In this document: in pieces, positions 8,957-58,204 of the stretch
Layout of the letters: every line of letters begins with the position of its first letter
How positions within the stretch are numbered: the stretch's first letter is position 1
Sequence record: OR062524
Direction: 5' to 3' (one strand)
Source of the DNA: Escherichia phage vB_EcoM_3A1_SA_NWU
DNA: 64,000 bases
Notes under the pieces: generated by a model
Told to the model about the DNA's origin: nothing
The model's input: only the letters and a program-made list of their open reading frames with translations
Database searches by the model: none
Translations under genes and position numbers: made by a program

Positions 8957-8982
8957 GGCATTATCATTACTACGAGGTTATC

Positions 8983-32115: not shown

Positions 32116-32151
32116 TAAAAAAGGGAACCCGCAAAGGTTCCCTTTTCTTTT
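32116..32151. terminator. bidirectional terminator at convergent junction
   Basis: aaaaaa-gggaacc-cgcaaa-ggttccc-ttttctttt between plus-strand fiber stop (32115) and minus-strand SSB stop (32179). Confidence 0.65.
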
Positions 32152-32178
32152 ATAAAAACTCTTTATAAATCAATAAGA

Positions 32179-33066: not shown

Positions 33067-33082
33067 TATTATCTCCTCTACA

Positions 33083-33475
33083 TTACATTAATTTTGCACA
33101 GAAAGAGCGGAGTCTTTCCATATCATCTTGCTCTAACAGGTATTTACCTTTACCTATTCCAACTCCAATTTCACCATTAGGAAAATGAACTATTTGCACT
33201 GGGAAACCTCCGAGTTTAATTGTGGCAGCTTTGCCTTCTTCGTCTATAACGTTTCGGATTGTATCTTGCAGTGAAATGAATTCTTTGTTTGTAACAGTGG
33301 TTTCAATTATTTCAGATGTTTCGACACGAGCAGTTAGCTTCTTGTTTCCACCTTGAATAACCAAAATTTGAAAATAAAAAGAGTTGTCAAGACCTACAAC
33401 ATTTTTCTCAACTAGTGTCAAACTGGTATAGTTTCCATAAACAGTTTCAACAGCTATCTTAGAACGTTCAGTCAT
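33083..33475 (-). CDS. hypothetical protein
   Basis: 130 aa ORF in replication operon. Confidence 0.45.
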   Translation of the reverse strand: MTERSKIAVETVYGNYTSLTLVEKNVVGLDNSFYFQILVIQGGNKKLTARVETSEIIETTVTNKEFISLQDTIRNVIDEEGKAATIKLGGFPVQIVHFPNGEIGVGIGKGKYLLEQDDMERLRSFCAKLM

Positions 33476-33520
33476 TGAATGCTATCCTATCATAAAATGT
33501 TTAATATTGTCAAGCTTTAA

Positions 33521-34114
33521 TTACCAAGGAATATCATCTTCTTCCAATCTGGTATCTACTTGAGGTGGACGTGGAACCTTAACCTCTTTCACAAAACGAA
33601 GATATGGGAAACGTGTAGCAATTTTAATAACATGTTTGGCATCTTCTCTAACATCTTTGTGCAAGAAGCAGATCCCTGTTTCCAAGGTTGTTTCAAAATC
33701 TTTAGAATAATAACAGTCCTTCCCATCAAATGCAGCCTGGCAGATGGACAGATCGAACTCATTTAGAAAGGTTGTCATTACGCTTGGTTCCATAATCATA
33801 AGGTTGCAAAGCTGACCATCACGTTCAAACTCAAAAACGTGTTTAAGACCAGTAACACCTTCATAATTGTCAGAAGCCTCTTTGTTTCCTAGTTTACGAA
33901 TATTGGTTCCCATTAAAGCAGATGCAATTAATCCTTGTATTTGTTCTTCAGTCCGATGTGCAGGAAGGGATGTATAGAAATCCAGATCACGTCCAGCAAT
34001 ATCAAGAATACGCCAATCACGAACAGCACCGCCAGCCAAGACAGAATTAGGATCAGCGATCTTTAATACGGTAAGAATTTCTTTGGCAATATTGATTTGT
34101 TTTGATTTAGTCAT
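33521..34114 (-). CDS. nucleotidyltransferase (CCA-adding enzyme/poly(A) polymerase head-domain-like) with SSB-tip-like C-terminus
   Basis: 197 aa; motif LAGGAVRDWRILDIAGRDLDF (GG...DxD, GGAVRD as in tRNA nucleotidyltransferases); ends ...LEEDDIPW. Confidence 0.55.
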   Translation of the reverse strand: MTKSKQINIAKEILTVLKIADPNSVLAGGAVRDWRILDIAGRDLDFYTSLPAHRTEEQIQGLIASALMGTNIRKLGNKEASDNYEGVTGLKHVFEFERDGQLCNLMIMEPSVMTTFLNEFDLSICQAAFDGKDCYYSKDFETTLETGICFLHKDVREDAKHVIKIATRFPYLRFVKEVKVPRPPQVDTRLEEDDIPW

Positions 34115-40459: not shown

Positions 40460-40738
40460 TTAAAATGGTTCGTTAGTCTCCATCATATATTCTGCTTCTA
40501 GTTCTTCCATGTGCTTTCTAAATTGGAAAGCAATTTCTGCTACAGTTACATTTAAATCTTTTTCAAAAACTTCTGTAGATCCTTCATAAAAACGAATACC
40601 GTCAATTAAAAGCCCTCCGTGGTAATCCCAATCGCTTTCACGAGAAAGTGGATTAGGTTCTTCATAATAGTAATCCACCTCCACAACCAAGGCTTTCCCG
40701 TTACGAGTGGTGTATTCAAAATCAAAAGTGTTAATCAT
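40460..40738 (-). CDS. hypothetical protein
   Basis: 92 aa ORF, TAATG-coupled. Confidence 0.45.
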   Translation of the reverse strand: MINTFDFEYTTRNGKALVVEVDYYYEEPNPLSRESDWDYHGGLLIDGIRFYEGSTEVFEKDLNVTVAEIAFQFRKHMEELEAEYMMETNEPF

Positions 40739-41682
40739 TATAGCTCCTCAAATAAAAGTCTACGACGCTCATTCAACACATCAATGTGATAATGAGTCCT
40801 GACATACTTAGCTAATGCTAATCCTTTCTCCATGCAAACATCGGGAGCACTTAATAAGTATTCCGTAATATCTTTCCACTCGGAAAGTGTTTCAGCAAAG
40901 AATAACAAATCTTTAAACTCTTGCGTATGATAATTCTCACGAGGAGAGCAGATTAAAGGTAAACCCTTAGCACCTGCCTCAAGAATTTTAAGATTGCTTT
41001 TTGCATTATTAAACACGTTATCGACCAATGGTGCAAGACTGATTTGATGACCATCGTAAGATTCCATGTAGTTGGCATATGGTCTTACACCTTCATAAAC
41101 ACTAGTTGGTGCTACATTTTCTCTAATTACAGACCATTCACGACTACTTAAAACTTCAGAATCCCTACGAAAACCACATATTGTAAGATCTTTACCAAAA
41201 TCGGGCAAGATAGCCAAATCTTGTTTATGTGTTTCACTTCCAGCCCAGACTAATGGAGTTTTGGAGTAGCGATCACGGGTCAACACAAATTGACCTTCAT
41301 CATAAGGAAGTCCATTAGGGATTATGTGCACATTATCATTGTATTGTGAAAGTTCAACTTGCAAGGCAGGTGTCGTAGTTGTAACAAGATCACTGTGCTC
41401 TAAAAACCATTTTAAATGTTCACGAATACCTGATTCAAAAATACCTTCTAACATGTGTCCTTTTGGAATAACTAAAGAGTCATCCAAATCCATAACCATT
41501 TTAAAGCCCAGGTTTTTAAGGGCTAAAAAGCCCTCTTTACCTTTTGTTGGCACTCCGTTAAAAACGAAAACGTTGTGTTTAGGTTGTGAAGAGAACTGCC
41601 TTGAGTAAGGCAGCACTACCCTATGGAAATCGCAGACACTATAATTGATTCCGTTACGATTGTCAAGAATTATTTGTCCCAT
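40738..41682 (-). CDS. glycosyltransferase, GT-B fold (GT4-like), paralog 2
   Basis: 314 aa; C-terminal motif NLKILEAGAKGLPLICS; paralogous to 41690-42637. Confidence 0.6.
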   Translation of the reverse strand: MGQIILDNRNGINYSVCDFHRVVLPYSRQFSSQPKHNVFVFNGVPTKGKEGFLALKNLGFKMVMDLDDSLVIPKGHMLEGIFESGIREHLKWFLEHSDLVTTTTPALQVELSQYNDNVHIIPNGLPYDEGQFVLTRDRYSKTPLVWAGSETHKQDLAILPDFGKDLTICGFRRDSEVLSSREWSVIRENVAPTSVYEGVRPYANYMESYDGHQISLAPLVDNVFNNAKSNLKILEAGAKGLPLICSPRENYHTQEFKDLLFFAETLSEWKDITEYLLSAPDVCMEKGLALAKYVRTHYHIDVLNERRRLLFEEL

Positions 41683-41689
41683 ACTTCAC

Positions 41690-42637
41690 CTACAAACTTT
41701 CAATAACCTGGCGTCGCAACTCGTTTGCATCTGCCAGATTATAATGTGTTCGAACATGTTCAGCCAAGAACAAGCCACGATCTTCCCGATAGTTTGGATT
41801 GCGAAGAAGCTTAACAATTTCGTAATGCCATTCTGCTTTATTCTCTGCGTAAGCAACAGCGTGAGCATCTACAGGGTTAAAATAAGGTAATACCTTAGAA
41901 CAAACAATTGGAATACCTTTTGCTCCAGCTTCCAGGATTTTGAGATTACTTTTACAATTATTAAAATCATTATCTACCAAAGGAGCTATAGCAATAGCAT
42001 GACTTTCGTAAACACTCATGTAATTATCTAAATCTTTTACGGCGGCTTTATATTTGGCATTTGGTAAATTTCTGCGAATCTTAATCCACTCTTGTCCCGT
42101 GATGCTTTGTGATGCTTCATATCCCGCAATAGTAAGAAGTTCATCATCGAAAGTATTAGAGACTAGTCGTAAGTCTGGTTCGTGACTAGCACCGCCAGCC
42201 CATACAACAGGGGTACCGGATGAACGATCATTTGACAAAGTGAATTGTCCGCTATCAAAAGGAAGTGCATTTCGGATCACAACAACATTCCTATTTAAGT
42301 GACGGATCTTATATGCTAAATATTCCGTAGTCACAATAACCACATCAGCAAGCTTAACCATAGCTACAATAGCATGAGTGTTTGACTCGTATAGACTTGC
42401 TAAATAATGTTCTGGATTAAGTTGGTAGAAATCATCTAAATCTACAACAATCTTAACACCTTGACGTTTCAAAGATAAAACGTATTCTGCACCTTTAGAA
42501 TGAATACGGTTAAACACGACAACATCTTTCTTAGGCTGAAAATTATTGTTGTTAAATGGTATAACAATACGATGATAATCACAACCACTGTGAGGTTTTG
42601 CATCAATTTTCAGTTTAGTCCATTTTTTATTTGACAT
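41690..42637 (-). CDS. glycosyltransferase, GT-B fold (GT4-like), paralog 1
   Basis: Track ORF 41690-42676 trimmed to ATG 42637 (MSNKK..., GAGGAGG upstream); motif NLKILEAGAKGIPIVCS. Confidence 0.6.
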   Translation of the reverse strand: MSNKKWTKLKIDAKPHSGCDYHRIVIPFNNNNFQPKKDVVVFNRIHSKGAEYVLSLKRQGVKIVVDLDDFYQLNPEHYLASLYESNTHAIVAMVKLADVVIVTTEYLAYKIRHLNRNVVVIRNALPFDSGQFTLSNDRSSGTPVVWAGGASHEPDLRLVSNTFDDELLTIAGYEASQSITGQEWIKIRRNLPNAKYKAAVKDLDNYMSVYESHAIAIAPLVDNDFNNCKSNLKILEAGAKGIPIVCSKVLPYFNPVDAHAVAYAENKAEWHYEIVKLLRNPNYREDRGLFLAEHVRTHYNLADANELRRQVIESL

Positions 42638-43310
42638 GTGCCAGTGCCTCCTCATAAGAAATTCGGATTTTCCCATTTTTAATATCTTCTAAAGACGCTT
42701 TATATTCTTCCCAGTTAATGCCAATAGCAGCTTCTTTCTCTTCTTTTGTCAGATTAGCAAAAGGCATAGGATTGTTTCCAAAAACATCGTCTGGGTGGAT
42801 ATAAGCCATGATACGAAGTGGACAAGGTATTGCCTGAATACCCTGATTCAAACCAGCAGCTTTCAAACGGTGTACCCATTCAGCATCTTCAAAACCATAG
42901 CCGTGAGTGTAAGGGCGGAAATAACCCATCTTCTCAACAACGGCACGAGAATACATTGCAAATTGACACATTGCAAGTTCCCAGAGAATAACTTCTCCTT
43001 TACTCCCAACAACTTTATCTTTGAAATACTCCGGCATACCAAAGAAATCCCATCTTCCAGAGACAGCTTGATCTACAAAATATGTTTCCCATCCCTCCAT
43101 GATTGGGTAGCAATCGTCGTCAAAAATAAACCAATAATCATAACCTTCTTCATAAAACTGGTGCATAAGTTCATTCCTGGCGTAAGCTACACCTTTACGA
43201 TCTGGATCGTTGAATACTCGAAAATCTGCATGTGGATCTGTTACAAGATAGTCTTTAAGTGGACGGACACCTACAGTGATAACACCCACTCCGATTTTAA
43301 TATTTTCCAT
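42627..43310 (-). CDS. glycosyltransferase, GT-A fold (family 2-like)
   Basis: 227 aa; N-terminal Rossmann-like VGVITVG, DxD motif YWFIFDDDCYP, later GYGFEDAEW. Confidence 0.55.
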   Translation of the reverse strand: MENIKIGVGVITVGVRPLKDYLVTDPHADFRVFNDPDRKGVAYARNELMHQFYEEGYDYWFIFDDDCYPIMEGWETYFVDQAVSGRWDFFGMPEYFKDKVVGSKGEVILWELAMCQFAMYSRAVVEKMGYFRPYTHGYGFEDAEWVHRLKAAGLNQGIQAIPCPLRIMAYIHPDDVFGNNPMPFANLTKEEKEAAIGINWEEYKASLEDIKNGKIRISYEEALAHVK

Positions 43311-43318
43311 TTTCTCTC

Positions 43319-43882
43319 CTAGATAGTTTTACTGTGATCGTGACAGTGTAATAAATGATGTATAGACCGTTGAGGATTTGTTTGACCTAATCTATAAATG
43401 TGAAACAGATACATTCCCCGCATCAATCCTAACCTCTTTCCTTTTTCATGTAAAGTGCGAGAGAAAATTAGGTCGAATTGGATAGATTTTTCTTCGAAAG
43501 GAATTTCATTCCACAATGATTTTCTAAAAAGCAAAAAGAAACCTGCCAGAGGTGTTCCGAAAGGAACTTCTTCAACACTCACTTTATGATATTCTCTTGC
43601 AATCTTAGCATATTCTATATGGTTTAGAATATCTGGATCATCGTTAATTTGGTTAGAGAAAAGCTGATAACCACTACCTAACCTGTTACAAGTTGCACCT
43701 ATTACATCAAAAGGCGGGTTTGACATAACAAGCTCTTCAAGCATAGATGGTTGATCAGGCAGGAGGAACATTGTATCGGTATCTCTTAAGCACACCCAAC
43801 TATCATCTGGAAGAACGGCAATAGCTTCATTGATAGCCTTGCCGATATTTCCTGTCAGATAGGGAGTAATATAATAAATCAT
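43319..43882 (-). CDS. putative nucleotide-sugar transferase (GT-A-like)
   Basis: 187 aa; YYITPY...LPDDSWVCLRDTDTMF (DxD-type motif). Confidence 0.4.
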   Translation of the reverse strand: MIYYITPYLTGNIGKAINEAIAVLPDDSWVCLRDTDTMFLLPDQPSMLEELVMSNPPFDVIGATCNRLGSGYQLFSNQINDDPDILNHIEYAKIAREYHKVSVEEVPFGTPLAGFFLLFRKSLWNEIPFEEKSIQFDLIFSRTLHEKGKRLGLMRGMYLFHIYRLGQTNPQRSIHHLLHCHDHSKTI

Positions 43883-45204: not shown

Positions 45205-45807
45205 TTATGGACATTCATACCATTCTTTTTTACCACCGAAGGCCATCACTACATCACAAATATCCAGACCAGCTTTACCTACACCATATGCTTTCAGCTT
45301 CCATTCCCCATCTTCACGAACCAGGGAAGCCACGTGGCAGATTGTGTTGCCAGCTACTTCAGGAGCCAGGAAGTCAAAATCCAGAATTTCCACATTGCGC
45401 TCGGAATCGAAGATTTTAAGCATACCTTCAGAAGCATGACCAAAACGTTTCAGACCTGTATCATCATCAATGGTCAGAACAAAGGCAATCTCTTGTGCAT
45501 CAGGAGAGATTTTAGCCAGAGTAATATCAATCTGCTCCATGCTGCCAGTTCCATCACGAACATCGTCACCAGCGAAGGTAGAACGTTCAGGATCAAACTT
45601 GTTAGCATAGCAAACCAGATGACGTGCAGACAGCATTTCAGGATTGCCAGCGGCATTGTGACGACAAACCAGTGCACTTACATCCAGATCCAGTTTAGAA
45701 TCAGATTTCCAAGAGAATTCCAGGCGCAGTTCTTTCAGAGCCGGAGCAACTTTCTTCAGGGAAATTTTTTCGCTAGAGCCTTTTTTCAGGGAAATTTTAT
45801 CAGTCAT
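45205..45807 (-). CDS. terD: TerD-family protein (tellurium resistance TerD-like)
   Basis: 200 aa; N-terminus MTDKISLKKGSSEKISLKK..., DLDVSALV, C-terminal DGEWKLKAYGVGKAGL closely matching TerD DGEWKFRAVGQGYAGGL. Confidence 0.8.
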   Translation of the reverse strand: MTDKISLKKGSSEKISLKKVAPALKELRLEFSWKSDSKLDLDVSALVCRHNAAGNPEMLSARHLVCYANKFDPERSTFAGDDVRDGTGSMEQIDITLAKISPDAQEIAFVLTIDDDTGLKRFGHASEGMLKIFDSERNVEILDFDFLAPEVAGNTICHVASLVREDGEWKLKAYGVGKAGLDICDVVMAFGGKKEWYECP

Positions 45808-45822: not shown

Positions 45823-46092
45823 TTATTTAAGTGTAATACCAGTTACAGTCAATTCTACTTCCAAAAGCTTAGATGTGTTTTGGATTGATACTAATTGTGC
45901 ATGATGGTTTAGTTCTACAGCAGAATAATCATTTTCCCCATCATCTACTTTTAAATAAACAATGATTTCACTAAGGTCTAAACCATTTTCGTCAAATGCA
46001 TTTTCATAGACGAAAGTATCTCCTACATCCAAATCTTTAATGGTAAGGCATCGTTTATTTACTTTTTGCTCATCAATTTCGAAGTTTAACAC
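45823..46092 (-). CDS. small conserved protein, paralog B of 47114-47392
   Basis: 89 aa; aligns with paralog A (FEIDEQK.../DLDVGDTFVYENAFDENGLD.../EVELTVTGITLK); GTG start with AGGAGG RBS. Confidence 0.5.
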   Translation of the reverse strand: MLNFEIDEQKVNKRCLTIKDLDVGDTFVYENAFDENGLDLSEIIVYLKVDDGENDYSAVELNHHAQLVSIQNTSKLLEVELTVTGITLK

Positions 46093-46321
46093 TTCTTCCT
46101 CCTAATGTTATCTCCGGTTTGTATATACGAAGAATTATAGCATTTTCATTTTCTTTGTCAACCCATTCTTCATAATCAGGCCATACATGAATCTCTACTC
46201 TACTTACAATATCTTCCATTCGCACAGTCCCAATGAAATACTCTTTGAGACTGCGCATAATGAAAGCTTCTCTCTCGCGCCAATAATTTTCTATGACTTG
46301 AGAGGCAAGCTCGTCGATCAT
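46073..46321 (-). CDS. hypothetical small protein
   Basis: 82 aa ORF between vWA gene and paralog B. Confidence 0.4.
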   Translation of the reverse strand: MIDELASQVIENYWREREAFIMRSLKEYFIGTVRMEDIVSRVEIHVWPDYEEWVDKENENAIILRIYKPEITLGGRSVKLRN

Positions 46322-47112
46322 TTTTTAGCACCTACTTTAACAACCCACTCTCCGAACTCTTCAGATAAGAGTTTGTCATAAAGCTCTGAATCTGTCAAGT
46401 CTAAATCTTTAATGCCAATAAAACCAACATTATCATAAGCATTTGCCAGTTCTTTCAGGAAGCCAAACTTCTCATTACCAACGCCAACCATGAACCAATA
46501 AATAGGTTTATTCTTATTCTCTTCGATAAGACGACGAACAGCACTAGGATCACCATTCTCACCATCCGTCTGGAAGAATACAACACCAGGGGTAACGTCA
46601 GCACCTGGTTCAGATACAGCTACAACTTTTTCACGCTCTACAGACACTGTTTCAGTTTTACCAAGCAGACGATTAAAGAAGCCTTTCTTTGGAGCCTCCT
46701 CTTGTACCACTTGTTTAGTGGTAATATATTTAGTAACAGTGCCAAAATACTCATCGTAGATATCCGCCATTACAGGGGCGTAATTTGTTCCACCTCCGAT
46801 ACGAACATTACGCATACATTTACCAACATAATCATCGTAAACGTCTGCTGTTGCTGGAGTAAGCTCTTGAGAACTCGTATTGAAGGCCCACATATCAATT
46901 TGTTCATTATCGTCGAACAGCATACCAAAAGGAAGCAGTTTACCTACAAAATCACTCACTACCCCACTAGAATATAGACCATGCATACTACCAGAAATGT
47001 CTAGAGCACATGCTACACGAAGAACAATCTTACCTTCATTCAGGTTCTTATTCTTTTTCAGAGAGAAAGCAAGGTTTTCTTGACGTTTTTTCAGGCTGAT
47101 TTTCTCGGACAT
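46318..47112 (-). CDS. von Willebrand factor A domain protein (TerY-like)
   Basis: 264 aa; MIDAS motif ALDISGSM; TerD-like N-terminal ISLKK repeats; within Ter-type cluster. Confidence 0.65.
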   Translation of the reverse strand: MSEKISLKKRQENLAFSLKKNKNLNEGKIVLRVACALDISGSMHGLYSSGVVSDFVGKLLPFGMLFDDNEQIDMWAFNTSSQELTPATADVYDDYVGKCMRNVRIGGGTNYAPVMADIYDEYFGTVTKYITTKQVVQEEAPKKGFFNRLLGKTETVSVEREKVVAVSEPGADVTPGVVFFQTDGENGDPSAVRRLIEENKNKPIYWFMVGVGNEKFGFLKELANAYDNVGFIGIKDLDLTDSELYDKLLSEEFGEWVVKVGAKK

Positions 47113-47113: not shown

Positions 47114-47392
47114 TTATTTCTCCTTCTTAAGTGTAATATTGGTAACTTCTAAATCTACTTCCACCATATTTGTATCTGGTGGGATGCAATGAGTATAGCC
47201 TCGTTGTGCTAGTGATCCATTAATACAAATCGCACTGTTTGTGGAATTTTTAATGAACACCAAGTTACGGTAGGTATCCAACCCTGCGTCTTCATAGGCA
47301 TCATAATACATGAATGTGGCCCCTATGCCAAGATCTTCGAAAGCAATAGGTAAATCCTGACACTTTTCTTCTTGAATATTGAATCTAAACAC
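47114..47392 (-). CDS. small conserved protein, paralog A
   Basis: Track ORF 47114-47458 trimmed to GTG 47392 (GAGGAGG RBS) where homology to paralog B begins. Confidence 0.45.
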   Translation of the reverse strand: MFRFNIQEEKCQDLPIAFEDLGIGATFMYYDAYEDAGLDTYRNLVFIKNSTNSAICINGSLAQRGYTHCIPPDTNMVEVDLEVTNITLKKEK

Positions 47393-47948
47393 GCATACCT
47401 CCTCTACCAATTTTGAAGCCCAAATCGTAAGCTTCCTTAGTGATCTTTTGTAACTCACTTATAGGAAGTGTTACAAGAGGATCATCTTCTTCAATTTCCA
47501 TCTTGTCATCTTCTGTTTCAATGAGAGTATTATGCACTTTGTGATAAGGGTTGTCAACACGTTTAAACTTATTCTTTTCTGTGCTGAAAAAACAATCTGG
47601 ATCTTCTTCACCATCGCCCCAACCTTGATTAGGATCTCCGTCAGATTGTTCTGTAGGGATTTCACCTGTAAAATACTCTTCCAGCACCATAGCAATACCG
47701 TCCCTTGGATTTGAGGAATGCATTAAATCACAAACCTTACCCCAATCCATAGCCCATTCGAACCGTTCACGAACGCCGTTTTCATCCTCCTTTCCAGAGA
47801 AAACACAACCATAACTATCATAGTTGCCATACATCTCTTCAATAACAACACCGTCCTTCAAAAGAAAGAGGTAGCAAGGTGATCCGTCGAAAGAAGTAGA
47901 AAGGGCAGCTTTGCCCGATTCTTTGCACAAAAAGCTAAAACAACCCAT
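47385..47948 (-). CDS. hypothetical acidic protein
   Basis: 187 aa, Asp/Glu-rich. Confidence 0.45.
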   Translation of the reverse strand: MGCFSFLCKESGKAALSTSFDGSPCYLFLLKDGVVIEEMYGNYDSYGCVFSGKEDENGVRERFEWAMDWGKVCDLMHSSNPRDGIAMVLEEYFTGEIPTEQSDGDPNQGWGDGEEDPDCFFSTEKNKFKRVDNPYHKVHNTLIETEDDKMEIEEDDPLVTLPISELQKITKEAYDLGFKIGRGGMRV

Positions 47949-48311: not shown

Positions 48312-48514
48312 TCTTCTTCCTCATTAAAGTCCACATCAGAAATAACTTTAAATCTACCAAAGTTACGACAACCTTCATAGATATATCCATCACGACAAGC
48401 TGCAAAAATATCTGGAGTTTGTAGCTGGGTCATTGGGGCAAAGCGTTTCTCTTCGTCATAACGAACACCTATTTCTCCGGCTTGTTCGTCAAGCATGTAT
48501 ACACGGATTCTCAT
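48308..48514 (-). CDS. hypothetical small protein
   Basis: 68 aa, ATGA-coupled to TelA-like gene. Confidence 0.4.
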   Translation of the reverse strand: MRIRVYMLDEQAGEIGVRYDEEKRFAPMTQLQTPDIFAACRDGYIYEGCRNFGRFKVISDVDFNEEEE

Positions 48515-49623
48515 TTACCCAACCCCTTCTTAACAGCGTCAACCATCCCATCTTCGAGAGATTGAACTTCATTGATGTAATCAACACGGGCAGCACGGGC
48601 TTCCGTATTGATGCGGTTAGTTTCTTCCAACATTCTAACCAAGTTTTCCTGATCGTGACGCAGAGTTTCAATATCCAACACTTGACGGTTAGCCAGTGCT
48701 GCTGCTTCGATCTGATTCTGTGTGGCAAGATCGCTACCCAGTTTAATTGCCAGGTTAAATTCATCAAGAACGTTATTCTGTGTCTCTGCGGCTTTCATTT
48801 GACGTAAGCTCTCAATATACATTGAGAAGTTAGCAGAGTAAGCAGGAATAACATTATTTACTATGTTACGCGCAGATCGCATTAAGCTTGCAGAAACTTT
48901 TTGCATACCTTGTACACGCGGTCCCATTTGGACACACAGTAGGCGCAACGCCTTTAAATCTGCAATACGAATCTCCAGGAGATCCAAAGTATCTCGGATC
49001 ACTTGTCGCTGTTCTACGGCATCTTCTGGAAGAGCAGCCAAAGCTTGTTCTTCTTTTTCATAGGTTGCTGTTAGAAGCTGCATATCTCGGTTCAAACTTG
49101 CAGCATATTGTCCAATAGCTTGGTGTAGCTTTTCAAGATATACCAAGGAATCTTCTTCTTTGCGAATATCCATTTGAAGGTTCTTTACCAACTCTTCAAT
49201 ACGGTTATTAACATTATCAAACTCCCCAAACAGGTCTTCTTTCATACCCATAACTTTTTTAATGAGTTTAGTAATACCCTTGCTTTGTTTAATAGAGTTT
49301 GGATCAAGTTGTTTTGCCTGTTTAATCAAAGCTGTGAGTCGTTCACTCATCTGATCGCCTTGATTACTACGTTGATGTTTTAACACCTCGGCATTCAAGG
49401 AACGCAAGGTTGTTCCTGCCTCTGCCCCGATTTCTTCGATCTCTTGCCTGGTCATAGAAGGCAAAGCTGGGACTTCTTGCGGTGCGGCTGGTGCATAAAC
49501 AGGACTGGCATCTAACACGCTTGGAGCGAATACAGATTTACTTGCATCTGTTGTTGCAGCAAATACGCTCATTTCAGGCTTCTTCTGACCACCAGTAGCT
49601 GCTTTTAAAAATGGACTTGTCAT
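48511..49623 (-). CDS. telA: TelA-like protein (toxic anion resistance family, putative)
   Basis: 370 aa, long helical protein of TelA/KlaA size class sitting between TerC and TerD/vWA genes; assignment by architecture and context. Confidence 0.5.
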   Translation of the reverse strand: MTSPFLKAATGGQKKPEMSVFAATTDASKSVFAPSVLDASPVYAPAAPQEVPALPSMTRQEIEEIGAEAGTTLRSLNAEVLKHQRSNQGDQMSERLTALIKQAKQLDPNSIKQSKGITKLIKKVMGMKEDLFGEFDNVNNRIEELVKNLQMDIRKEEDSLVYLEKLHQAIGQYAASLNRDMQLLTATYEKEEQALAALPEDAVEQRQVIRDTLDLLEIRIADLKALRLLCVQMGPRVQGMQKVSASLMRSARNIVNNVIPAYSANFSMYIESLRQMKAAETQNNVLDEFNLAIKLGSDLATQNQIEAAALANRQVLDIETLRHDQENLVRMLEETNRINTEARAARVDYINEVQSLEDGMVDAVKKGLGK

Positions 49624-50210
49624 TCTTCATTCTCCTCTTCTGCATCTCTTATATATGGTGAAACACCGTACTCTTTAGCTACTTTAACCCAATCGTCCCA
49701 TTTATACAACCATAATTTTCCTTCGGTCCCTTCTTTATCTGATTTCAACCACATATTAGGTTGCTTACCTGGGTACATGCGATTAGGTTTACGATTATAA
49801 CCTCTAACACATCTTGTCGCAAACCTATCTACCAGAACAAGAACATATTTATATTCGTGGTTCAACGGCTCTTTGGAAGTGGCTTTAGGATTAGCCCCTA
49901 ATTCTGCTGCCAGTTTTTGCCAATGAGCACCGTGCCTACTAAACTTACCCATACAACCATCAATAGCATGAGCAATTTCGTGCTTCATTGTATCCACGAT
50001 CATATCTCTTGTAGAGTTCTTATGCAAGTGCCAATTTACAACAACAATTTTATCTCGGTAGTTGCACCAACCGAAAGAGTTATTCACTTTGTTTCTAACG
50101 CAAGCTTTATATCCCGCTTCACGTAACATGTTGTAGTAAACAGGAAAATCTTCTTTTATTTCCTGCATCACTTCCCACCACAAGAGTTGCAAGTCTCTCT
50201 CGGTATACAT
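49620..50210 (-). CDS. Zn-dependent metallohydrolase (SprT/YgjP-like HExxH...HGxxW motif)
   Basis: 196 aa; motif MKHEIAHAIDGCMGKFSRHGAHW. Confidence 0.5.
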   Translation of the reverse strand: MYTERDLQLLWWEVMQEIKEDFPVYYNMLREAGYKACVRNKVNNSFGWCNYRDKIVVVNWHLHKNSTRDMIVDTMKHEIAHAIDGCMGKFSRHGAHWQKLAAELGANPKATSKEPLNHEYKYVLVLVDRFATRCVRGYNRKPNRMYPGKQPNMWLKSDKEGTEGKLWLYKWDDWVKVAKEYGVSPYIRDAEEENEE

Positions 50211-51793: not shown

Positions 51794-51805
51794 AAGTCTC
51801 TCCTA

Positions 51806-51829
51806 TAAAATAGCCTCCCGAAGGAGGCT
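51806..51829 (-). terminator. rho-independent terminator after TerC gene
   Basis: Minus strand AGCCTCC-TTCG-GGAGGCT then TTTTAT. Confidence 0.5.
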
Positions 51830-51835
51830 TATCTA

Positions 51836-52810
51836 TTAAACAGTGGCTTCTTCTTTTTCAGGAAAGATAAAGCTTGCAATAACACCAAGAGCTAATGTGC
51901 CCAGAACAATCATCAGACTTACGTTAGGGGAAATATCATGCGGGAGGAATGACCACTTGGCATGAAGTGTTTCACCGAACGGGTGATACATAAGTTTAGC
52001 ACCGACAAACACCAGAACCACAGCAACCGCTTTCTCTAAGTGAACCAGATATTTCACAGCTACACTTAACACAAAGAAAAGTGCACGTAAACCAAGAACA
52101 GCCATCAGCATTGCAGAATAAACTAGCAGAGGTTCTTGTGTCACACCGATCACAGCCGGAACTGAATCAAAAGAGAAGACAATATCTGTAAGCTCAATAA
52201 CAAACACACAAAGAAGAGCAGGAGTTGCATATTTAATACCATTCTTAATGGTGATGAACTTTTCACCATCCAGTGCATTGTGCACAGGCAGAACTTTACC
52301 TACTAAACGAACAGCCCAATGTTTAGAGTAATCAATATCCTCTTCTTCGTCACCACCTTTGATGATAGCCACGGCAGACCAAGCTACAATCAAACCGAAC
52401 AACACTTGGACCGACCAATGAAGGTTAAACAAAGCGGTCCCTGCTGCAACAAAAATACCTCGGAAGACAATGGCTCCTGCAATCCCCCAAAGTAGAATCT
52501 TATGTTGGAGATGTGTGCTCTTAATTCCAAAGCTTGCAAAAATTGCCATGAACACCATTAGGTTATCTACAGAAAGACTCTTTTCCAACACATAGCCACT
52601 TAGGAAAAGCGCGGCAAACTCTTTACCATGTTCTACCCAAATGAATGCGTAATATCCTAAAGCTAAAGCAATCCAAAAAACAGACCAAAGCAAAGCAGAT
52701 TTAATTCCAATTTCTTTATTCTCTTTATGACCAAAGAAATCGATACCAATAGACAATGCCAAAATACCAACTAAAACAACTACATCAATGATTGGGAAAC
52801 CAAGTTGCAT
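51836..52810 (-). CDS. terC: TerC-family integral membrane protein
   Basis: 324 aa, multiple hydrophobic helices, conserved SLSVDN motif, acidic loop GGDEEEDIDYS; AAGGAG RBS. Confidence 0.75.
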   Translation of the reverse strand: MQLGFPIIDVVVLVGILALSIGIDFFGHKENKEIGIKSALLWSVFWIALALGYYAFIWVEHGKEFAALFLSGYVLEKSLSVDNLMVFMAIFASFGIKSTHLQHKILLWGIAGAIVFRGIFVAAGTALFNLHWSVQVLFGLIVAWSAVAIIKGGDEEEDIDYSKHWAVRLVGKVLPVHNALDGEKFITIKNGIKYATPALLCVFVIELTDIVFSFDSVPAVIGVTQEPLLVYSAMLMAVLGLRALFFVLSVAVKYLVHLEKAVAVVLVFVGAKLMYHPFGETLHAKWSFLPHDISPNVSLMIVLGTLALGVIASFIFPEKEEATV

Positions 52811-52829
52811 TATTTTCTCCTTTCTCTTT

Positions 52830-52848
52830 GCGGGGAACCACTCCCCGC
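52830..52848 (-). promoter_or_regulatory. 5' leader hairpin upstream of TerC
   Basis: gcgggg-aaccact-ccccgc between predicted start site and RBS. Confidence 0.4.
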
Positions 52849-52860
52849 CTCATGTGATAC

Positions 52861-52888
52861 ATCTTACTCTTTTTTAAAACCTTGTCAA
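52861..52888 (-). promoter_or_regulatory. sigma70-like promoter (TTGACA-16 nt-TAAGAT) for TerC unit
   Basis: Minus strand gtgTTGACA-16nt-TAAGAT; -35 at 52883-52888, -10 at 52861-52866. Confidence 0.45.
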
Positions 52889-52891
52889 CAC

Positions 52892-53113
52892 TTATTTTGA
52901 AGAACTGGAGGAAAAGATTCCACGCAGCACTGCCATAATGAACGCTACGCACACCACGGTCCAGAATGTAACAGGAACAGTGATATCTGTGTGACCCATC
53001 ATTTCAACAACGTAGTTGTAAGCCAGCAGCAGAAGCCACGCTGGAATCATACTGATCAGGAAAGCCAGAACAAACACGATAACTACTGCCAGAACACCTG
53101 CAACAACACCCAT
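52892..53113 (-). CDS. small membrane protein (two hydrophobic helices)
   Basis: 73 aa, almost entirely hydrophobic; GAGGAG RBS. Confidence 0.5.
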   Translation of the reverse strand: MGVVAGVLAVVIVFVLAFLISMIPAWLLLLAYNYVVEMMGHTDITVPVTFWTVVCVAFIMAVLRGIFSSSSSK

Positions 53114-53126
53114 ATTATTTCTCCTC

Positions 53127-53609
53127 TTAAAGTTTATAAATAGTCACATCGTGACCTGCTTTTACTAAAGTTTCTTCAATCATCACTTCGATGATAGCCC
53201 AATTACCTCCTGCCAACCCTGCTCCAATCATAGGTAAACCAATCTTATGTTCGGCAGATGTGTTCACCCATTTGTGGAGATCCTTTGCCATAGCCTCAAG
53301 AGCATCATACAGGGCATCATAGTCCAACTGACGACCTTTACCGTTATACCCGTAACGGTACTGTCCGTATAGGTTATAAACCAGTGGGTCAGACACCTCC
53401 TCCGGCACCCCTAAACTAAAAGAACCCAGCTTACTTTGATCACCTGCGGCTGTGTCCAAGTCGGCTGCATATGCATAAGGAAATGCTCGTTTAATTTGCG
53501 GAGCAATCCCTGCACCCATATTACACATACAGTTACAACAGTGGGCTATAACGTTCACTTCCCCATTCTTCGCTGCATCGATCAGATTCCCAGTAACAAC
53601 CTTCAACAT
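53127..53609 (-). CDS. macro domain protein (ADP-ribose binding/processing, putative)
   Basis: 160 aa; N-terminal VVTGNLIDAAKNGEVNVIAHCCNCMCNMGAGIA and C-terminal IGLPMIGAGLAGGNW resemble macro domain boxes; AAGGAGG RBS. Confidence 0.5.
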   Translation of the reverse strand: MLKVVTGNLIDAAKNGEVNVIAHCCNCMCNMGAGIAPQIKRAFPYAYAADLDTAAGDQSKLGSFSLGVPEEVSDPLVYNLYGQYRYGYNGKGRQLDYDALYDALEAMAKDLHKWVNTSAEHKIGLPMIGAGLAGGNWAIIEVMIEETLVKAGHDVTIYKL

Positions 53610-53618
53610 TTTTCCTCC

Positions 53619-54446
53619 TTACAGAATATGTTGTTTTGTGTAACGATCCAAGAACTCAAAGTTTTCAGCATACTTTGCAATTCGATTGTAGCCTTCAGCT
53701 AAACAGCCGAAGAAAAGTTGTTCCACATAGTAGTGTGGCAATTGGCTAAGAATGATTTTGAAGTCTTCATGATTTTGGCCCATAAGATACTTAATAGGAC
53801 GAACAAGACACTGTGCATCACATTCTTCATTAATCATTTTAACAAACGCTTCTGGTGTATTAATATAGTTAAAATTCAGCTTAGCTTCGGTATCTGCTTG
53901 ATTACCTTCATATTTTGCAAAATACAAGAAGTAAACATCATTTTTAACTTGATTTTCATCAAGAATCTCAATCAGTTTGTCTTCATGAGTTCCAGTGATA
54001 TTTACATCATCAATGAACACAAGCTTCTTATCACCCCAGAATTCTTTGTTGCAGTAGAATGTATCCCCATCAATAAGTTTCTTACGACTAGCTTTATCCA
54101 AGAAACCATAATCGTTGATATAGCTAACTTTACGATGAATAATATCCAGTTCTGCTGAACGACCTTGATCATATTGTGCTTGCAACATATTAAAGTAATT
54201 AATAAAATGATCTGTCATCATTGTTGCAGCATTATGCACATGGTTATAAGGAGAAGGAATGATAACAAATTGTTCCCCAATATGTTTCATTGCTACTTGA
54301 GCAAAAAACTGAAGTGCCAATTCTTTACCCATACGACGCGCAGCTTGGTTACTACCAAATTTCAATTTTGAATAATCTTTGATATCAAAAGTAGCAGTTT
54401 CCAGGGCATCAAATTTATTTGCAAAAATTTGAGTTTGATTACGCAT
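53619..54446 (-). CDS. phosphoribosyltransferase-type protein (type I PRTase motif)
   Basis: 275 aa; PRPP-binding-loop-like motif KKLVFIDDVNITGTHEDKL. Confidence 0.55.
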   Translation of the reverse strand: MRNQTQIFANKFDALETATFDIKDYSKLKFGSNQAARRMGKELALQFFAQVAMKHIGEQFVIIPSPYNHVHNAATMMTDHFINYFNMLQAQYDQGRSAELDIIHRKVSYINDYGFLDKASRKKLIDGDTFYCNKEFWGDKKLVFIDDVNITGTHEDKLIEILDENQVKNDVYFLYFAKYEGNQADTEAKLNFNYINTPEAFVKMINEECDAQCLVRPIKYLMGQNHEDFKIILSQLPHYYVEQLFFGCLAEGYNRIAKYAENFEFLDRYTKQHIL

Positions 54447-55095
54447 TTACAATTTCTCCTCTTTTAAGTTTCTCTAGTAAGTCGTTAGGGTTCTTAATAT
54501 AACAGAAGTTAATCCCTATGTCAACACATTTACCATCAAATTCTTCGCTGTCCCCAACATGTAAAATCTCTTCAGCCTTCAAAGGAATGCTTGAATATGT
54601 GGCGGTCCTAACAAAGAATCTAGGATCTGGTTTACACAACAGATGTTCGTCTGAAAAATGCATAAATTCAAAACAATTCCAACTATCGAACATACAAGCA
54701 CGACGCAAAATATCCCCAGATATAAAATTAGTATTGCTTTTAATACTAAGATCATATTTACCAGACAAGTATAGCAAACAAACTGGCAAATCTAAAGCAA
54801 TATGTGGAGGAAATTTAAGAAACCACTGTTCGCACTCAAAACGCATTTGTGCAGATTCTACAGGGGTTAAACCTATTTTTCTTCCCAACATATTCCATGC
54901 ATATGCCACACCTTCTGCACACCCATTTAGTGCAGCATTATCCATAATTTCTTTGGCATCTTTATATGCTTCTTTTGCGGCACGTTCAGACATTCTACCA
55001 TATGTCGCAATAGTGTGCGTACGTGCGTCTGCATAGTTTTGATTGGCAGAAATAAGAGTGTTCCATACATCAAAAGAGATATGTTTTATTGTCAT
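54439..55095 (-). CDS. HAD-superfamily hydrolase (putative phosphatase)
   Basis: Track ORF trimmed to ATG 55095 (MTIKHISFDVWNTLI..., 1 nt after upstream stop); motif I FDVWNTL, motif IV-like HVGDSEEFD. Confidence 0.5.
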   Translation of the reverse strand: MTIKHISFDVWNTLISANQNYADARTHTIATYGRMSERAAKEAYKDAKEIMDNAALNGCAEGVAYAWNMLGRKIGLTPVESAQMRFECEQWFLKFPPHIALDLPVCLLYLSGKYDLSIKSNTNFISGDILRRACMFDSWNCFEFMHFSDEHLLCKPDPRFFVRTATYSSIPLKAEEILHVGDSEEFDGKCVDIGINFCYIKNPNDLLEKLKRGEIVNA

Positions 55096-55096
55096 A

Positions 55097-55702
55097 TTAA
55101 GCCCACCACGCATCAAGATTTAAGTTACTGTCTACCACAACTTGTTCTATGTGGTAGCCTTTTATCTGTATCCCACTGTTCAAGAGCATATCATACGCTT
55201 CATTGAAACGCAACTTATCTTCTGCGGAATATAAACGAGCATTATAAAATCGGTAATCAATTTCTTCAGCATTAGAAGAAATACGGAAGAAGTTTGTTTC
55301 TACTTCGGGATCACTTGCTGAAGTCTTAATGTGAACTTCTCCATAATTTTCTTTACTTAGATCCATGAAAAGAACACAGGCAACATGTTTAAACATTCGT
55401 TCCAGTTTGTAACGAACAACATTGAAACCTGCATTCTCAAGTTTTTCTACACACTGCAACATTAAAGTAGTGTCGAGATCGCTTTGATACTTTGTTAACA
55501 TACGATCACGTTGAGACTTTGTATCCCGATGTAAATCAATTGTTGTGCATTTGGCACCAATAATCTTAGCTGCTTTCATCAACTCTTCAGAACTAACGTT
55601 AGATAAAGTAAGATGAAAATGGGCTTTCCACACTTTTTTAGCAGGGACACCAAAAGATTTATCCCCACTATTCGGCATGTTGACTACTACACTATGTTGC
55701 AT
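55097..55702 (-). CDS. hypothetical protein
   Basis: 201 aa; single HxTx-like motif AHFHLTLS; GAGGAG RBS. Confidence 0.45.
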   Translation of the reverse strand: MQHSVVVNMPNSGDKSFGVPAKKVWKAHFHLTLSNVSSEELMKAAKIIGAKCTTIDLHRDTKSQRDRMLTKYQSDLDTTLMLQCVEKLENAGFNVVRYKLERMFKHVACVLFMDLSKENYGEVHIKTSASDPEVETNFFRISSNAEEIDYRFYNARLYSAEDKLRFNEAYDMLLNSGIQIKGYHIEQVVVDSNLNLDAWWA

Positions 55703-55717
55703 TACTTATCTCCTCAC

Positions 55718-55909
55718 TTAAAATGGAAGTCTTTGAAGTTCATCTCCTCCGATATCAAGTAATTTAGCAACATCTCGATCAGAAAGCAACTCTTTTCTTT
55801 GTAAAATATCCACAAGGGTTGCAAGAATGTCCTTAACGTCCCGATCACTGTTCTTCAACAGTTCTCCTGCCGTCCCTACTCTATCTCCTACAGCAAAATA
55901 TGTAACCAT
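55718..55909 (-). CDS. hypothetical small protein
   Basis: Track ORF 55718-55942 trimmed to ATG 55909 (AGGAGG RBS). Confidence 0.4.
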   Translation of the reverse strand: MVTYFAVGDRVGTAGELLKNSDRDVKDILATLVDILQRKELLSDRDVAKLLDIGGDELQRLPF

Positions 55910-55922
55910 GAAACCTCCTAAG

Positions 55923-56393
55923 TTAATCTGATTGCCAACCACTTGCCGTTTTGGTCCATAATCTTTGATTATCTGACCCTCTGAAAGGTTTTGTAGTTGG
56001 ATTGTTTATTTCATACTTTCCGTCTACAATAATGTCAACAAGATTTTTAATATATAAAGGCACTTCCTCAAAAGTATATCCTGTATACACCATTATATCT
56101 TTGCTTGACCCATAAACGTCTCTAACCTTTTCTATAAGGCTTTTAACATTGTAAATATTCTGCGGATCTAATGGTTCTCCTCCTAAAATTGTTAAACCTT
56201 TTACAAACGGTCTTGACAAATCTTTTAAAACTTGCTCTACATTTTCGTGAGTAAACGGTTCCCCGTAAGAATAAGACCAGGCTTTCTGGTTAAAACAGCC
56301 ACGACAACCGTGGCTACAACCACTAACCCAGAGGGAGCACCTAACTCCCTCACCATTAATAAGATCTACAGGTTCATATCCTGCAAAATTCAA
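55923..56393 (-). CDS. nrdG: anaerobic ribonucleotide reductase activating protein (radical SAM)
   Basis: 156 aa; CSLWVSGCSHGCRGCFN cysteine cluster; TTG start overlapping NrdD stop. Confidence 0.8.
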   Translation of the reverse strand: MNFAGYEPVDLINGEGVRCSLWVSGCSHGCRGCFNQKAWSYSYGEPFTHENVEQVLKDLSRPFVKGLTILGGEPLDPQNIYNVKSLIEKVRDVYGSSKDIMVYTGYTFEEVPLYIKNLVDIIVDGKYEINNPTTKPFRGSDNQRLWTKTASGWQSD

Positions 56394-58204
56394 AGATGTT
56401 TCTCCCTTTGCAAAACTTCCTGCATTTTACCTTTGTTATAAGGCCGTGAATTAGGAGCAGAAAGATACCCTGATACACGTCTAACTACAGAAATAGTTTC
56501 TTCTTCATGGTTGCCACAATCAGGGCACTCAAACCCTTTAGCCGTTGCCTTAAATTCTCCATGAAAACCACACTTAAAGCATTGATCCACGGGCTGATTA
56601 ATACCAAAATAGTGAATATGTTCATAAGCGTAGTCTACTAAAGTCTCCAAAGCTTCTAAGTTATTCTTTAAGTTTGGTGTTTCGACATAACTTATGTTAC
56701 CACCATTACTAATCTGTGCAAAACCTGCTTCATAATCCCATTTTTCAAAAGGATTTGTTACCAACCATACAGGTTGATGAAAAGAGTTAGTAAGATAATC
56801 TCTTTCTACCAGACCTGGATATTTTTCATTTAAAGCTGTTGCAAACTTATAACACAAGGATTCTGCTGGAGTTCCATAGAGACTAAATGCCAGCTTAGAT
56901 CGCTCTTTAAACACAGCACACACATCTTTCATATGTTGCAGAATGTTTTTACCTAGCTCCTTTTTATCTTTTTCTTCTGGATAAAGGATTTCCAAAGCTT
57001 CAGCAAGACCTACATAACCAATACTAATAGAAGCATAACCATCTTCAAACAAAACACCAATTTCATCGTTGGCATTTAAACGCGCTAAAGCCCCTTCCAT
57101 GAAAAGAATAGGGTTTTCAGATGCTTTGGTATGTCTAATACGGTTTACACGTAACATGTGAGCATCGTAGGCTATCTCCATATGTTTATTAAGGAGGTCG
57201 GTGAAAGATTCTCCTTTACTTCTCGCTTCCGCAGCAATCAAAGGCAAGTTGATAGAAACTACTCCAAGGTTGAATCGTCCATCATATTTTTCTCCTTGTT
57301 CGGTGGCATAGTACGACAAAAAGGAACGACAACCCATACTCGTAACAGTACCATCTGCTGATCCCGTAACTTCTTTGTTCAAAGGAACAGAAATAAAATC
57401 TGGATAAATGCGATCAGCACAACATGCCAAAGCTTGTTGCTTAAGGTCATAGTTAGGATCACTAGGTTTCATGTTAACACCTTCTTGTAAAAAGAAAATA
57501 ACTTTAGGGAATACAGGTGTTACATGATCTTTGCCTAGACCATTACTATGCACTTTAAGATAGTTAGCTGTGATCATTCTGCCAAAAACAGAGGTATCCA
57601 GACCCATACTGATTGTAATAAAAGGAGATTGTCCATTTACACTCATTAAAGTATTAACCTGATACAAGAGAGTTTGCATAGCATCATATACATCTTGTTC
57701 GGTCATTTCTAGGGCTTCTTTCCTTGCATAACAACCGTAGCGACGTTTAGTTATCTCCATGTTTTTAAGGAAACTAGCTTCAACATAAGGACTAAGACCT
57801 TTATCAATGTGCGCACACGTCTGACCTCCATACTGACTGGAGGCAACAGCTTGAATGATTTGAGTTAGCACTGTAGTAGCTACTCCAATAGATTTTGGTT
57901 TTTCTATCTGTGCAGCACCGATCTTAAAACCATTCTCTAACATATCTTGATAATTAACAAGACAACAGTTTGTAAGAGGAGAGAGTAGGTAATCCAAGTC
58001 GTGAATATGTCCAAAACCTTCTGTATGCCATTCTGACAAGTTTTTTGGCAGTATCTGTGTCATTGCCATATGTTTGCTTAAAATCCCCGCCAAGAGATCC
58101 CTGTGCGTGTTAACGAGGTGGGAAGGTTTGTTTGCATTCTCTCTAGTGTATGTTTCTGAAGTGCGATCTAAAAAAGAAAAAACATCTTGGTACAAATCTT
58201 TCAT
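56390..58204 (-). CDS. nrdD: anaerobic ribonucleoside-triphosphate reductase
   Basis: 604 aa; C-terminal Zn ribbon CFKCGFHGEF...CPDCGNHEE and glycyl-radical motif RVSGYL. Confidence 0.85.
   Translation of the reverse strand: MKDLYQDVFSFLDRTSETYTRENANKPSHLVNTHRDLLAGILSKHMAMTQILPKNLSEWHTEGFGHIHDLDYLLSPLTNCCLVNYQDMLENGFKIGAAQIEKPKSIGVATTVLTQIIQAVASSQYGGQTCAHIDKGLSPYVEASFLKNMEITKRRYGCYARKEALEMTEQDVYDAMQTLLYQVNTLMSVNGQSPFITISMGLDTSVFGRMITANYLKVHSNGLGKDHVTPVFPKVIFFLQEGVNMKPSDPNYDLKQQALACCADRIYPDFISVPLNKEVTGSADGTVTSMGCRSFLSYYATEQGEKYDGRFNLGVVSINLPLIAAEARSKGESFTDLLNKHMEIAYDAHMLRVNRIRHTKASENPILFMEGALARLNANDEIGVLFEDGYASISIGYVGLAEALEILYPEEKDKKELGKNILQHMKDVCAVFKERSKLAFSLYGTPAESLCYKFATALNEKYPGLVERDYLTNSFHQPVWLVTNPFEKWDYEAGFAQISNGGNISYVETPNLKNNLEALETLVDYAYEHIHYFGINQPVDQCFKCGFHGEFKATAKGFECPDCGNHEEETISVVRRVSGYLSAPNSRPYNKGKMQEVLQREKHL

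Follow-up and report, generated by a model that had tools for sequence, protein, structure and literature searches.

Ter (tellurite-resistance-type) systems reportedly carry a biosynthetic module of a phosphoribosyltransferase (PRTase) and a HAD hydrolase, which Anantharaman, Iyer and Aravind are said to have set out in 2012, and a small molecule made by this pair has been predicted since then. We found no experimental identification of this metabolite in the literature. PRTases and HAD phosphoesterases were later assigned to the arm of Ter systems that makes nucleoside and nucleotide derivatives, complete or abbreviated Ter systems were described in jumbo phages and in certain smaller tailed phages related to them, and these systems were proposed to act against superinfecting phages (Iyer et al. 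2021, PMC7824862). This kind of HAD–PRTase_3 pair is already known from comparative genomics, including in phages. Here we analysed such a pair in a stretch of 64,000 nucleotides (nt) from Escherichia phage vB_EcoM_3A1_SA_NWU (record OR062524), referred to as the window and numbered from its first letter. The source is a Phapecoctavirus (phAPEC8-like, a ~150-kb E. coli myovirus).

Between positions 53127 and 55702, four minus-strand open reading frames (ORFs) encode, in the direction of transcription, a protein of 201 amino acids (aa), the HAD hydrolase, the PRTase and a macro domain protein, and a 73-aa protein and TerC follow downstream. This tightly packed layout agrees with that given by an earlier reading made without database searches (the sequence-only reading). 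All three junctions were read directly. The TAA of the 201-aa gene and the ATG of the HAD gene are 1 nt apart (a single T), the HAD stop and the PRTase start overlap by 8 nt (ATGCGTAA), and the PRTase TAA is followed by GGAGGAAAA and then the macro ATG, leaving a 9-nt gap with a GGAGG Shine-Dalgarno sequence. The region 51800-56400 matched 76 phage records, with at least 80% coverage in 70 of the 76 and Shigella phage SF1-1 as the top match (95.9% identity), whereas no copy of the interval was found among 5,426 complete E. coli genomes. As the four-gene block is kept in 70 phage records at this coverage, it is no chance arrangement.

On balance, we favour the reading that a Ter-linked HAD–PRTase_3 pair is the functional unit of this interval, to which the macro domain and 201-aa genes have been added separately as anti-defence genes. 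The interval would then be the enzyme-encoding end of a Ter system that is carried by phages and kept in Stephanstirmvirinae.

The HAD–PRTase_3 pair and its Ter neighbours

The PRTase (275 aa; 53619-54446, minus strand) matched PF15610 (PRTase_3), a family defined from Ter neighbourhoods, with 141.5 bits (cut-off 28.7; 4.4e-41) over 250 of the 264 profile positions, and has a C-terminal helical domain. Its fold is type I and ComF-like, with the acidic-acidic-x-x-x-T-G-x-T loop that binds phosphoribosyl pyrophosphate (PRPP). The string LVFIDDVNITGTHE, quoted in the sequence-only reading as a type I PRPP-binding loop, is present in it. Homologues from Stephanstirmvirinae, jumbo phages and metagenomic contigs are 45-66% identical, and the PRPP loop (D-D-x-x-I-T-G-T-H-E) and several further motifs are invariant among them. 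Instead of a non-catalytic fold, which that reading had considered as an outcome, we found the fold and the PRPP loop intact and the loop invariant. The role predicted from these sequences for PRTase_3 is PRPP-dependent ribosyl transfer leading to a nucleoside-like metabolite.

The HAD gene occupies 54439-55095 on the minus strand. It can start at a TTG at 55116 (225 aa) or at an ATG at 55095 (218 aa), of which the ATG is likelier because it agrees with the PHROG alignment and with the GenBank annotation of phage SF1-1. The protein matched phrog_14393 (1e-119), gave partial NCBIfam matches (HAD-IA, DREG-2/CTE7/HAD type II) and matched PDB 2om6 (1.2e-5), with which it has the FDVWNTL motif in common; both this string and GDSEEFD, on which the HAD assignment had first been based, are present. 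Its match to the Pfam Hydrolase model (PF00702) reached 19.5 bits (E 1.4e-3), under the cut-off of 26.4, and precomputed PF00702 matches do exist for HAD homologues at other loci. Across 45 HAD partners of PRTase_3, motifs I-IV are kept, with SN followed by T or S as motif II, KP as motif III and GDxxxxD as motif IV. Motif I reads D-x-W-x-T (D-V-W-N-T in the window, near 55050-55070), so that the nucleophilic Asp is present and position Asp+2 is Trp in 44 of the 45 proteins and Tyr in one. The pattern DxDx(T/V) of HAD phosphatases, in which the second Asp acts as general acid/base, is therefore absent from the window protein. Trp, or rarely Tyr, stands at Asp+2 in every lineage, as in haloacid dehalogenases, and the chemistry of this HAD may be other than a plain phosphomonoesterase reaction.

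We tabulated 47 PRTase_3 loci, drawn from GTDB genomes, phage entries in GenBank and contigs of IMG/VR and of metagenomes. A HAD gene immediately adjoins PRTase_3 in 46 of them, the exception being a degenerate second copy carried by a Rhizobium plasmid. The paired loci span Stephanstirmvirinae, other phage-like contigs, jumbo phages, Rhizobium and Ensifer replicons, Bacteroidales, Actinobacteria and a Peribacteria metagenome-assembled genome (MAG). The HAD–PRTase_3 pair is clearly an obligate, conserved functional unit of the interval. Two of the phage records are near-identical to E. coli phages at this locus although named after other hosts, and these host labels may be unreliable: in Acinetobacter phage ABPW7 the PRTase is 98.2% identical to that of the window, and Campylobacter phage A145 has the same identity and score as the E. 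coli Justusliebigvirus records.

Downstream of the pair, at 0.8-8 kb, the window holds four minus-strand genes of the Ter core: a TerC-family integral membrane protein (51836-52810; PF03741 at 3e-40), TelA (48511-49623; PF05816 at 3.8e-33), a vWA-TerF-like protein (46318-47112; PF10138 at 1.7e-37) and TerD (45205-45807; PF02342 at 3.2e-28). Outside Stephanstirmvirinae, the pair has Ter genes within 10 kb in six unrelated phage-like contigs (L003, L004, L046 and L050-L052) and in all five non-rhizobial bacterial loci, namely three from Bacteroidota, the Peribacteria MAG and Pedococcus. In phage records we found PRTase_3 in 156 and TerD in 145, and the genus counts almost coincide, Rhizobium phages excepted. 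The signature of a Ter-type PRTase with a HAD partner, which had been proposed from the letters of the window, was thus borne out both by the PF15610 assignment and by the Ter core beside it.

The analysis establishes gene anatomy, folds, motifs and co-occurrence statistics; we infer the substrates and product of the pair, its link to the Ter proteins and the two anti-defence roles considered below. PRTase_3, with its intact PRPP loop, would join a base-like nucleophile to PRPP and give a ribosyl-5′-phosphate adduct. The translationally coupled HAD would then process this phospho-intermediate, in the simplest case by removing the 5′-phosphate, to yield a nucleoside-like small molecule. The product presumably acts with or on the membrane-associated TerD, vWA-TerF, TelA and TerC proteins encoded just downstream, and its purpose may be superinfection exclusion or the control of membrane and metal stress during infection.

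Several observations weigh against this reading. A plain 5′-nucleotidase role is uncertain because the HAD protein has no Asp at Asp+2 (D-x-W) and scores under the Pfam cut-off. Moreover, no Ter genes were detected within 10 kb of the pair in 14 Rhizobium/Ensifer loci, none was seen near the pair in the Rhizobium-phage locus that we examined (Rhizobium phages are also not among the listed TerD genera), and none lies locally in CcrColossus or the XaC1-like jumbo phages. In XaC1 and the jumbo contig L040 the neighbours of the pair are instead an RNA ligase, 2H-SAK, a CCA-adding enzyme and a NUDIX gene. As the pair is found without detectable Ter genes, its dependence on Ter is not obligatory.

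These loci would suit a Ter-independent nucleotide or RNA module, which might serve base salvage or detoxification, manipulation of the PRPP pool or RNA repair and would merely lie near Ter genes here. The pair stands apart from Ter genes in the rhizobial replicons, with aminotransferases and a LysE-type exporter beside it, in Rhizobium phages and in the RNA-related surroundings of XaC1 and L040, and the window places it in one putative operon with NrdDG, the genes of the anaerobic ribonucleotide reductase. However, Ter genes are found repeatedly next to the pair in phages and bacteria that are phylogenetically far apart, PRTase_3 and TerD nearly coincide in their presence at the level of phage genomes, and PF15610 was itself defined from Ter contexts. 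We consider such a module unlikely and keep to the Ter-linked pair. In the rhizobial replicons (positions 3000-9000 of the Ensifer aridi locus L010, and the other rhizobial loci), the neighbours, identified from N-terminal sequence resemblance only, are PLP-dependent (pyridoxal phosphate) aminotransferase-like genes and the LysE-type exporter, again without Ter genes; this setting suggests a secreted small molecule.

The macro domain and 201-aa proteins

The macro domain protein (160 aa; 53127-53609, minus strand) matched PF01661 only at the borderline (22.8 bits against 22; 9.6e-5) and phrog_335 at 3.7e-57. Its PDB matches place it in the ALC1/TARG1-like class: S. coelicolor SCO6735 (5e3b, 3.4e-13), BT1257 (2fg1, 7.7e-9), the T. 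aquaticus DarG macrodomain (5m31/5m3e, 3e-7), TARG1 (4j5r, 5e-6) and Poa1p (6lfu, 1e-5). The PADLOC DarG model was matched at 4.8e-12 and the NCBIfam DarG model at 4e-11, the latter with 42.7 bits against a cut-off of 250 and over its N-terminal part only, and the 160-aa protein has no DarT-binding C-terminal domain of a full DarG antitoxin. H23, N26, Q83 and the GAGLAGG loop (G-x-G-L-A-G-G) are kept in its phage orthologues.

SCO6735 cleaves ADP-ribose from thymidine in DNA and is protective against DarT; mutation of its Gln85 abolishes activity (PMC9411070). A phage macrodomain, AdfM, counters DarTG2 (PMC13309987). Like the macrodomains of AdfM, DarG2 and SCO6735, the window protein has an ALC1/TARG1-like fold, and it is a stand-alone gene in a virulent phage with Gln83 aligned to SCO6735 Gln85. 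It differs from them in that the catalytic Lys of DarG (K80), TARG1 (K84) and AdfM (K78) is replaced by this Gln, the DarG C-terminal domain is missing, and the position of SCO6735 Lys34 is Ala33; the missing Lys and the Ala both count against our reading. Since the closest characterised relatives, SCO6735 and DarG2, strip ADP-ribose from DNA thymidine, a stand-alone counter-defence role seems likely. As judged from its relatives, the protein is most likely a candidate ADP-ribosyl (DNA) glycohydrolase of the SCO6735/DarG2 type, an AdfM-like orphan antitoxin that would strip DarT-type ADP-ribose from DNA. The gene is thus a candidate for a further, Gln-based type of anti-DarT macro protein beside the Lys-based one.

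Only Phapecoctavirus, Justusliebigvirus, a related third lineage (63% PRTase identity) and the rearranged contig L039 have a macro gene no more than 1 kb from the pair. In L039 the order is macro-89aa-HAD-PRTase-117aa-HD, with the macro gene 0.9 kb upstream of the pair and no Ter gene within 8 kb. In two jumbo-phage loci a macro gene is found 6-7.5 kb from the pair, and at the remaining pair-bearing loci, phage and bacterial, it is absent. An alternative is a single pathway in which PRTase, HAD and macro domain, and perhaps the 201-aa protein too, would work one after another on a shared metabolite of the ribose-phosphate or ADP-ribose type, with the product being bound, deacylated or dephosphorylated by the macro domain. 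The tight coupling of PRTase and macro genes across the GGAGG-bearing gap fits such a pathway, as do the macro gene adjoining the pair in three lineages, its more distant copies in the jumbo phages, and the inclusion in its class of Poa1p, an ADP-ribose-1″-phosphate phosphatase. The L039 arrangement, which we treat as incidental, hints at a functional link between macro gene and pair and in this respect speaks against us. However, the macro gene is not beside the pair elsewhere, its best matches are hydrolases that act on macromolecular DNA-ADP-ribose, and no enzyme of the operon makes ADP-ribose or acyl-ADP-ribose. The lineages that keep the macro gene are related, so inherited synteny can explain its adjacency to the pair. 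A single pathway through all these proteins appears doubtful to us.

The sequence-only reading had united PRTase, HAD and macro domain in one metabolite module and let the macro domain add an ADP-ribose-binding or deacylating step. The pair survives from this proposal, adjacent as it is in 46 of 47 loci, but the macro gene, adjoining it in a single phage subfamily and one rearranged relative, is not a conserved third member. The interval is better described as an obligate HAD–PRTase_3 pair of a phage Ter system, a macro gene syntenic within one phage subfamily and an independent 201-aa gene. The macro and 201-aa proteins would accordingly be flanking genes outside the core pathway.

The 201-aa protein (55097-55702, minus strand; phrog_22504) had no sequence match in Pfam, NCBIfam or PDB. 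A search with a hidden Markov model against 1.84 billion representatives returned at least 251 relatives, and a profile search of a large protein database returned no named ones. Several relatives (~340 aa) carry an N-terminal NUDIX domain, and fusions to HD_4 (P0168) and to a helix-turn-helix (HTH) domain also occur. Ten polar residues are invariant throughout the two broad alignments of the family (H30, which is part of an H-x-T, R97, K99, E101, E122, H124, S142, E186, D191 and D197), and conservation of K51 and N144 reaches at least 90%. This invariant polar pattern fits an enzyme or a tight binder of a phospho-ligand. The predicted model starts with a beta-strand, has no HTH and shows an antiparallel alpha+beta fold with two His.

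Two PADLOC models labelled 'AbiEi' matched the window protein (PDLC02277 at 4.7e-13, PDLC02279 at 4.4e-12), and all 28 family members tested matched both models over their full length (best 3.7e-55). The defining features of an AbiEi antitoxin were nevertheless not found: the protein lacks a winged helix at its N-terminus, matches neither the Pfam AbiEi domain nor any solved structure, and has no AbiEii neighbour in the window or in the related-locus contexts examined; the label may reflect automated model building. A 2H phosphoesterase was considered as well, but the internally duplicated, bilobed fold with its two H-x-T/S motifs is not seen. The cREC domain, reported in phages as a fusion partner of NUDIX (PMC9503650), was rejected because it has a Rossmannoid fold and two Asp, in contrast to the antiparallel alpha+beta fold and two His of the 201-aa model.

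The 201-aa gene is absent from Justusliebigvirus, which retains HAD, PRTase and macro genes. In Escherichia phage EmilieFrey (Bas61; L030, 6784-7944), the interval between NrdG and HAD is filled by a 386-aa AAA/STAND-like ATPase and two small ORFs where Phapecoctavirus has the 201-aa gene, which looks like a swap of accessory genes at a fixed locus. A 201-aa gene in Pseudomonas phage PsgM04F is 75% identical. Homologues are also found in the early region of 110 Rheinheimera Barba phages, a genus not among the PRTase_3 matches, and no homologue of a GC-rich family member was found in a plasmid collection. In a 110-kb phage contig (L026, 10001-11021), a homologue runs into the start of an Acb1 gene, and a NADAR gene is near; in a T4-like contig (L036, 7274-9125), the HD_4 fusion and a NAD kinase gene overlap, with Nampt and NUDIX genes a few kb away. 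The 201-aa gene is probably independent of the HAD–PRTase_3 pair, either accessory or anti-defence, and it belongs to an uncharacterised, mostly phage-borne, nucleotide-centred family that plausibly acts in anti-defence. As a widespread and structurally unplaced phage protein, this family would be tied to conflicts over nucleotides, NAD and ADP-ribose, a context that is strong at these loci.

These contexts bear on a further alternative offered by the sequence-only reading, in which the phage rebuilds NAD+ or ADP-ribose derivatives against NAD-depleting immunity, much as in NARP-like pathways. Such a route would share with phage NAD+ reconstitution (Nampt/Nmnat; Adps/Namat) a phage-encoded phosphoribosyl chemistry and a conflict setting. 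It is favoured by the HD_4-fused homologue coupled to a NAD kinase gene near Nampt and NUDIX, by the several NUDIX fusions and by the binding of ADP-ribose-type ligands by macro domains. However, the window PRTase is type I and ComF-like, whereas nicotinamide and nicotinate PRTases (Nampt/NadV and NAPRTase, PF04095) and Namat are type II, and the conserved partners of the pair are Ter proteins, not NAD enzymes. Using tblastn with phage sequences, we found no real homologue of Nampt, NadM-like NUDIX, NAD kinase, Acb1 or NADAR in the 64-kb window, and neither the four genes nor those around them encode a Nmnat or PRPP-synthetase-like (Adps) domain that could act as an adenylyltransferase or PRPP-synthetase-like partner. 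A weak NUDIX-like match at 25.2-25.6 kb was spurious, as it lies inside a 1017-aa tail-fibre-like ORF. We regard NAD+ rebuilding as very improbable. Ties to NAD and ADP-ribose run only through the 201-aa family and the macro domain, as probable erasers and not as rebuilders.

A bolder extension would see the operon as a compact phage 'nucleotide-warfare' unit. During infection, the pair would make a diffusible nucleoside-like signal or antimetabolite and be bracketed by two erasers of nucleotide-based immunity marks of the host. Here, the 201-aa protein would represent a new enzyme family with two invariant His and Lys, Arg, Glu and Asp residues on a tandem ferredoxin-like scaffold without a solved relative. 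Alone or fused to NUDIX or HD, it would destroy a nucleotide-derived immune messenger or reverse a nucleotidyl modification. We think this scenario improbable.

Transcription unit and surrounding genes

In this part of the window every gene is on the minus strand, and the order of transcription runs from NrdD and NrdG through the four genes to TerC and on to TerD. NrdD (56390-58204) and NrdG (55923-56393) were identified from their ORFs and the annotation of the homologous SF1-1 region, and a 74-aa ORF (55718-55942) precedes the 201-aa gene in the same putative unit. Between the macro gene and TerC lies a 73-aa predicted membrane protein (52892-53113; phrog_16065 at 4.9e-41), whose position is kept in all Stephanstirmvirinae-like loci.

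Only two strong minus-strand terminator-like hairpins were found, at 58299-58279, which precedes NrdD, and at 51829-51812 just 3′ of TerC. The latter has a 7-bp stem with 5 GC pairs and a T-rich tail and is the probable end of the transcription unit. Because the two hairpins bracket NrdD-NrdG-74aa-201aa-HAD-PRTase-macro-73aa-TerC, co-transcription, which the sequence-only reading had assumed, is plausible, and a putative transcription unit would run from NrdD to TerC. In a promoter scan, sigma-70-like sites were no more numerous than in shuffled sequence, and promoters were for this reason not used as evidence. Two minus-strand sites may be chance occurrences: a near-consensus one (TTGACA-17-TATATT with TG, 11/12) at 54496-54524, within the HAD gene and ~50 nt upstream of the PRTase start, and a 10/12 one at 52861-52888 in the 81-nt gap ahead of TerC.

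Several small ORFs without assigned function lie between TerC and the SprT-like gene and between TelA and TerD. The gene for the SprT-like zinc metalloprotease (49620-50210, minus strand; PF10263 at 4.2e-9; HEIAH motif) shares 4 nt with the start of TelA. The Phapecoctavirus-like loci L001, L002, L043 and L044 have it in syntenic position, but we detected no homologue of it in L030, L041 and L045, the Justusliebigvirus loci. The vWA-TerF-like gene is flanked by two small paralogous ORFs of 114 aa (47114-47458) and 89 aa (45823-46092), which share ~31-33% identity and have no Pfam match; this duplication is kept in related phages. A 187-aa Cys-rich ORF (47385-47948) within the Ter cluster also has no Pfam match, and a 29% identical homologue is found in the unrelated 110-kb phage contig L026 (15687-16151), where NADAR and the 201-aa homologue are a few genes away.

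Four consecutive minus-strand ORFs (40738-43882) directly downstream of the endolysin/TerD region are glycosyltransferase-like. Two of them fall in the SF1-1 stretch that we retrieved and are both annotated as glycosyltransferases there; the four proteins may modify DNA or the cell surface. Near 32 kb (window ~30000-34000) the GC skew turns from positive to negative, in agreement with a change of coding strand: plus-strand genes, with tail-fibre-like ORFs at 22-27 kb, give way to the minus-strand block with the four genes of the interval.

Comparison with known biosynthetic modules

In the virulent E. coli phages considered here, which are easily grown and edited, the biosynthetic arm of Ter systems is cut to two translationally coupled genes, and close relatives from the same subfamily are available in the BASEL collection (e.g. 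Bas61 EmilieFrey). With such a minimal version in tractable phages, the question of the metabolite becomes directly testable, and the phage pair could reveal the predicted small molecule.

A comparable two-step logic is known from ToyH/ToyI (toyocamycin) and CobT/CobC (alpha-ribazole), in which a free base and PRPP (or nicotinate mononucleotide, NaMN) give a ribosyl-5′-phosphate that is then dephosphorylated to the nucleoside. By analogy, the predicted phage pair would share this chemistry, while its HAD differs by the Trp at Asp+2.

With the Ter-associated PRTase and HAD modules, the phage locus has in common PF15610, the HAD partner and the TerC, TerD, TelA and vWA-TerF neighbours, as well as the predicted logic of PRPP-dependent ribosylation followed by phosphoesterase action to give a nucleoside-like metabolite. 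The phage version differs in being minimal, as an ATP-grasp enzyme, a TIM-barrel lyase, an extra PRTase paralogue and TerB were not seen in the phage cluster, and in being joined to NrdDG upstream and to the macro and 201-aa add-ons.

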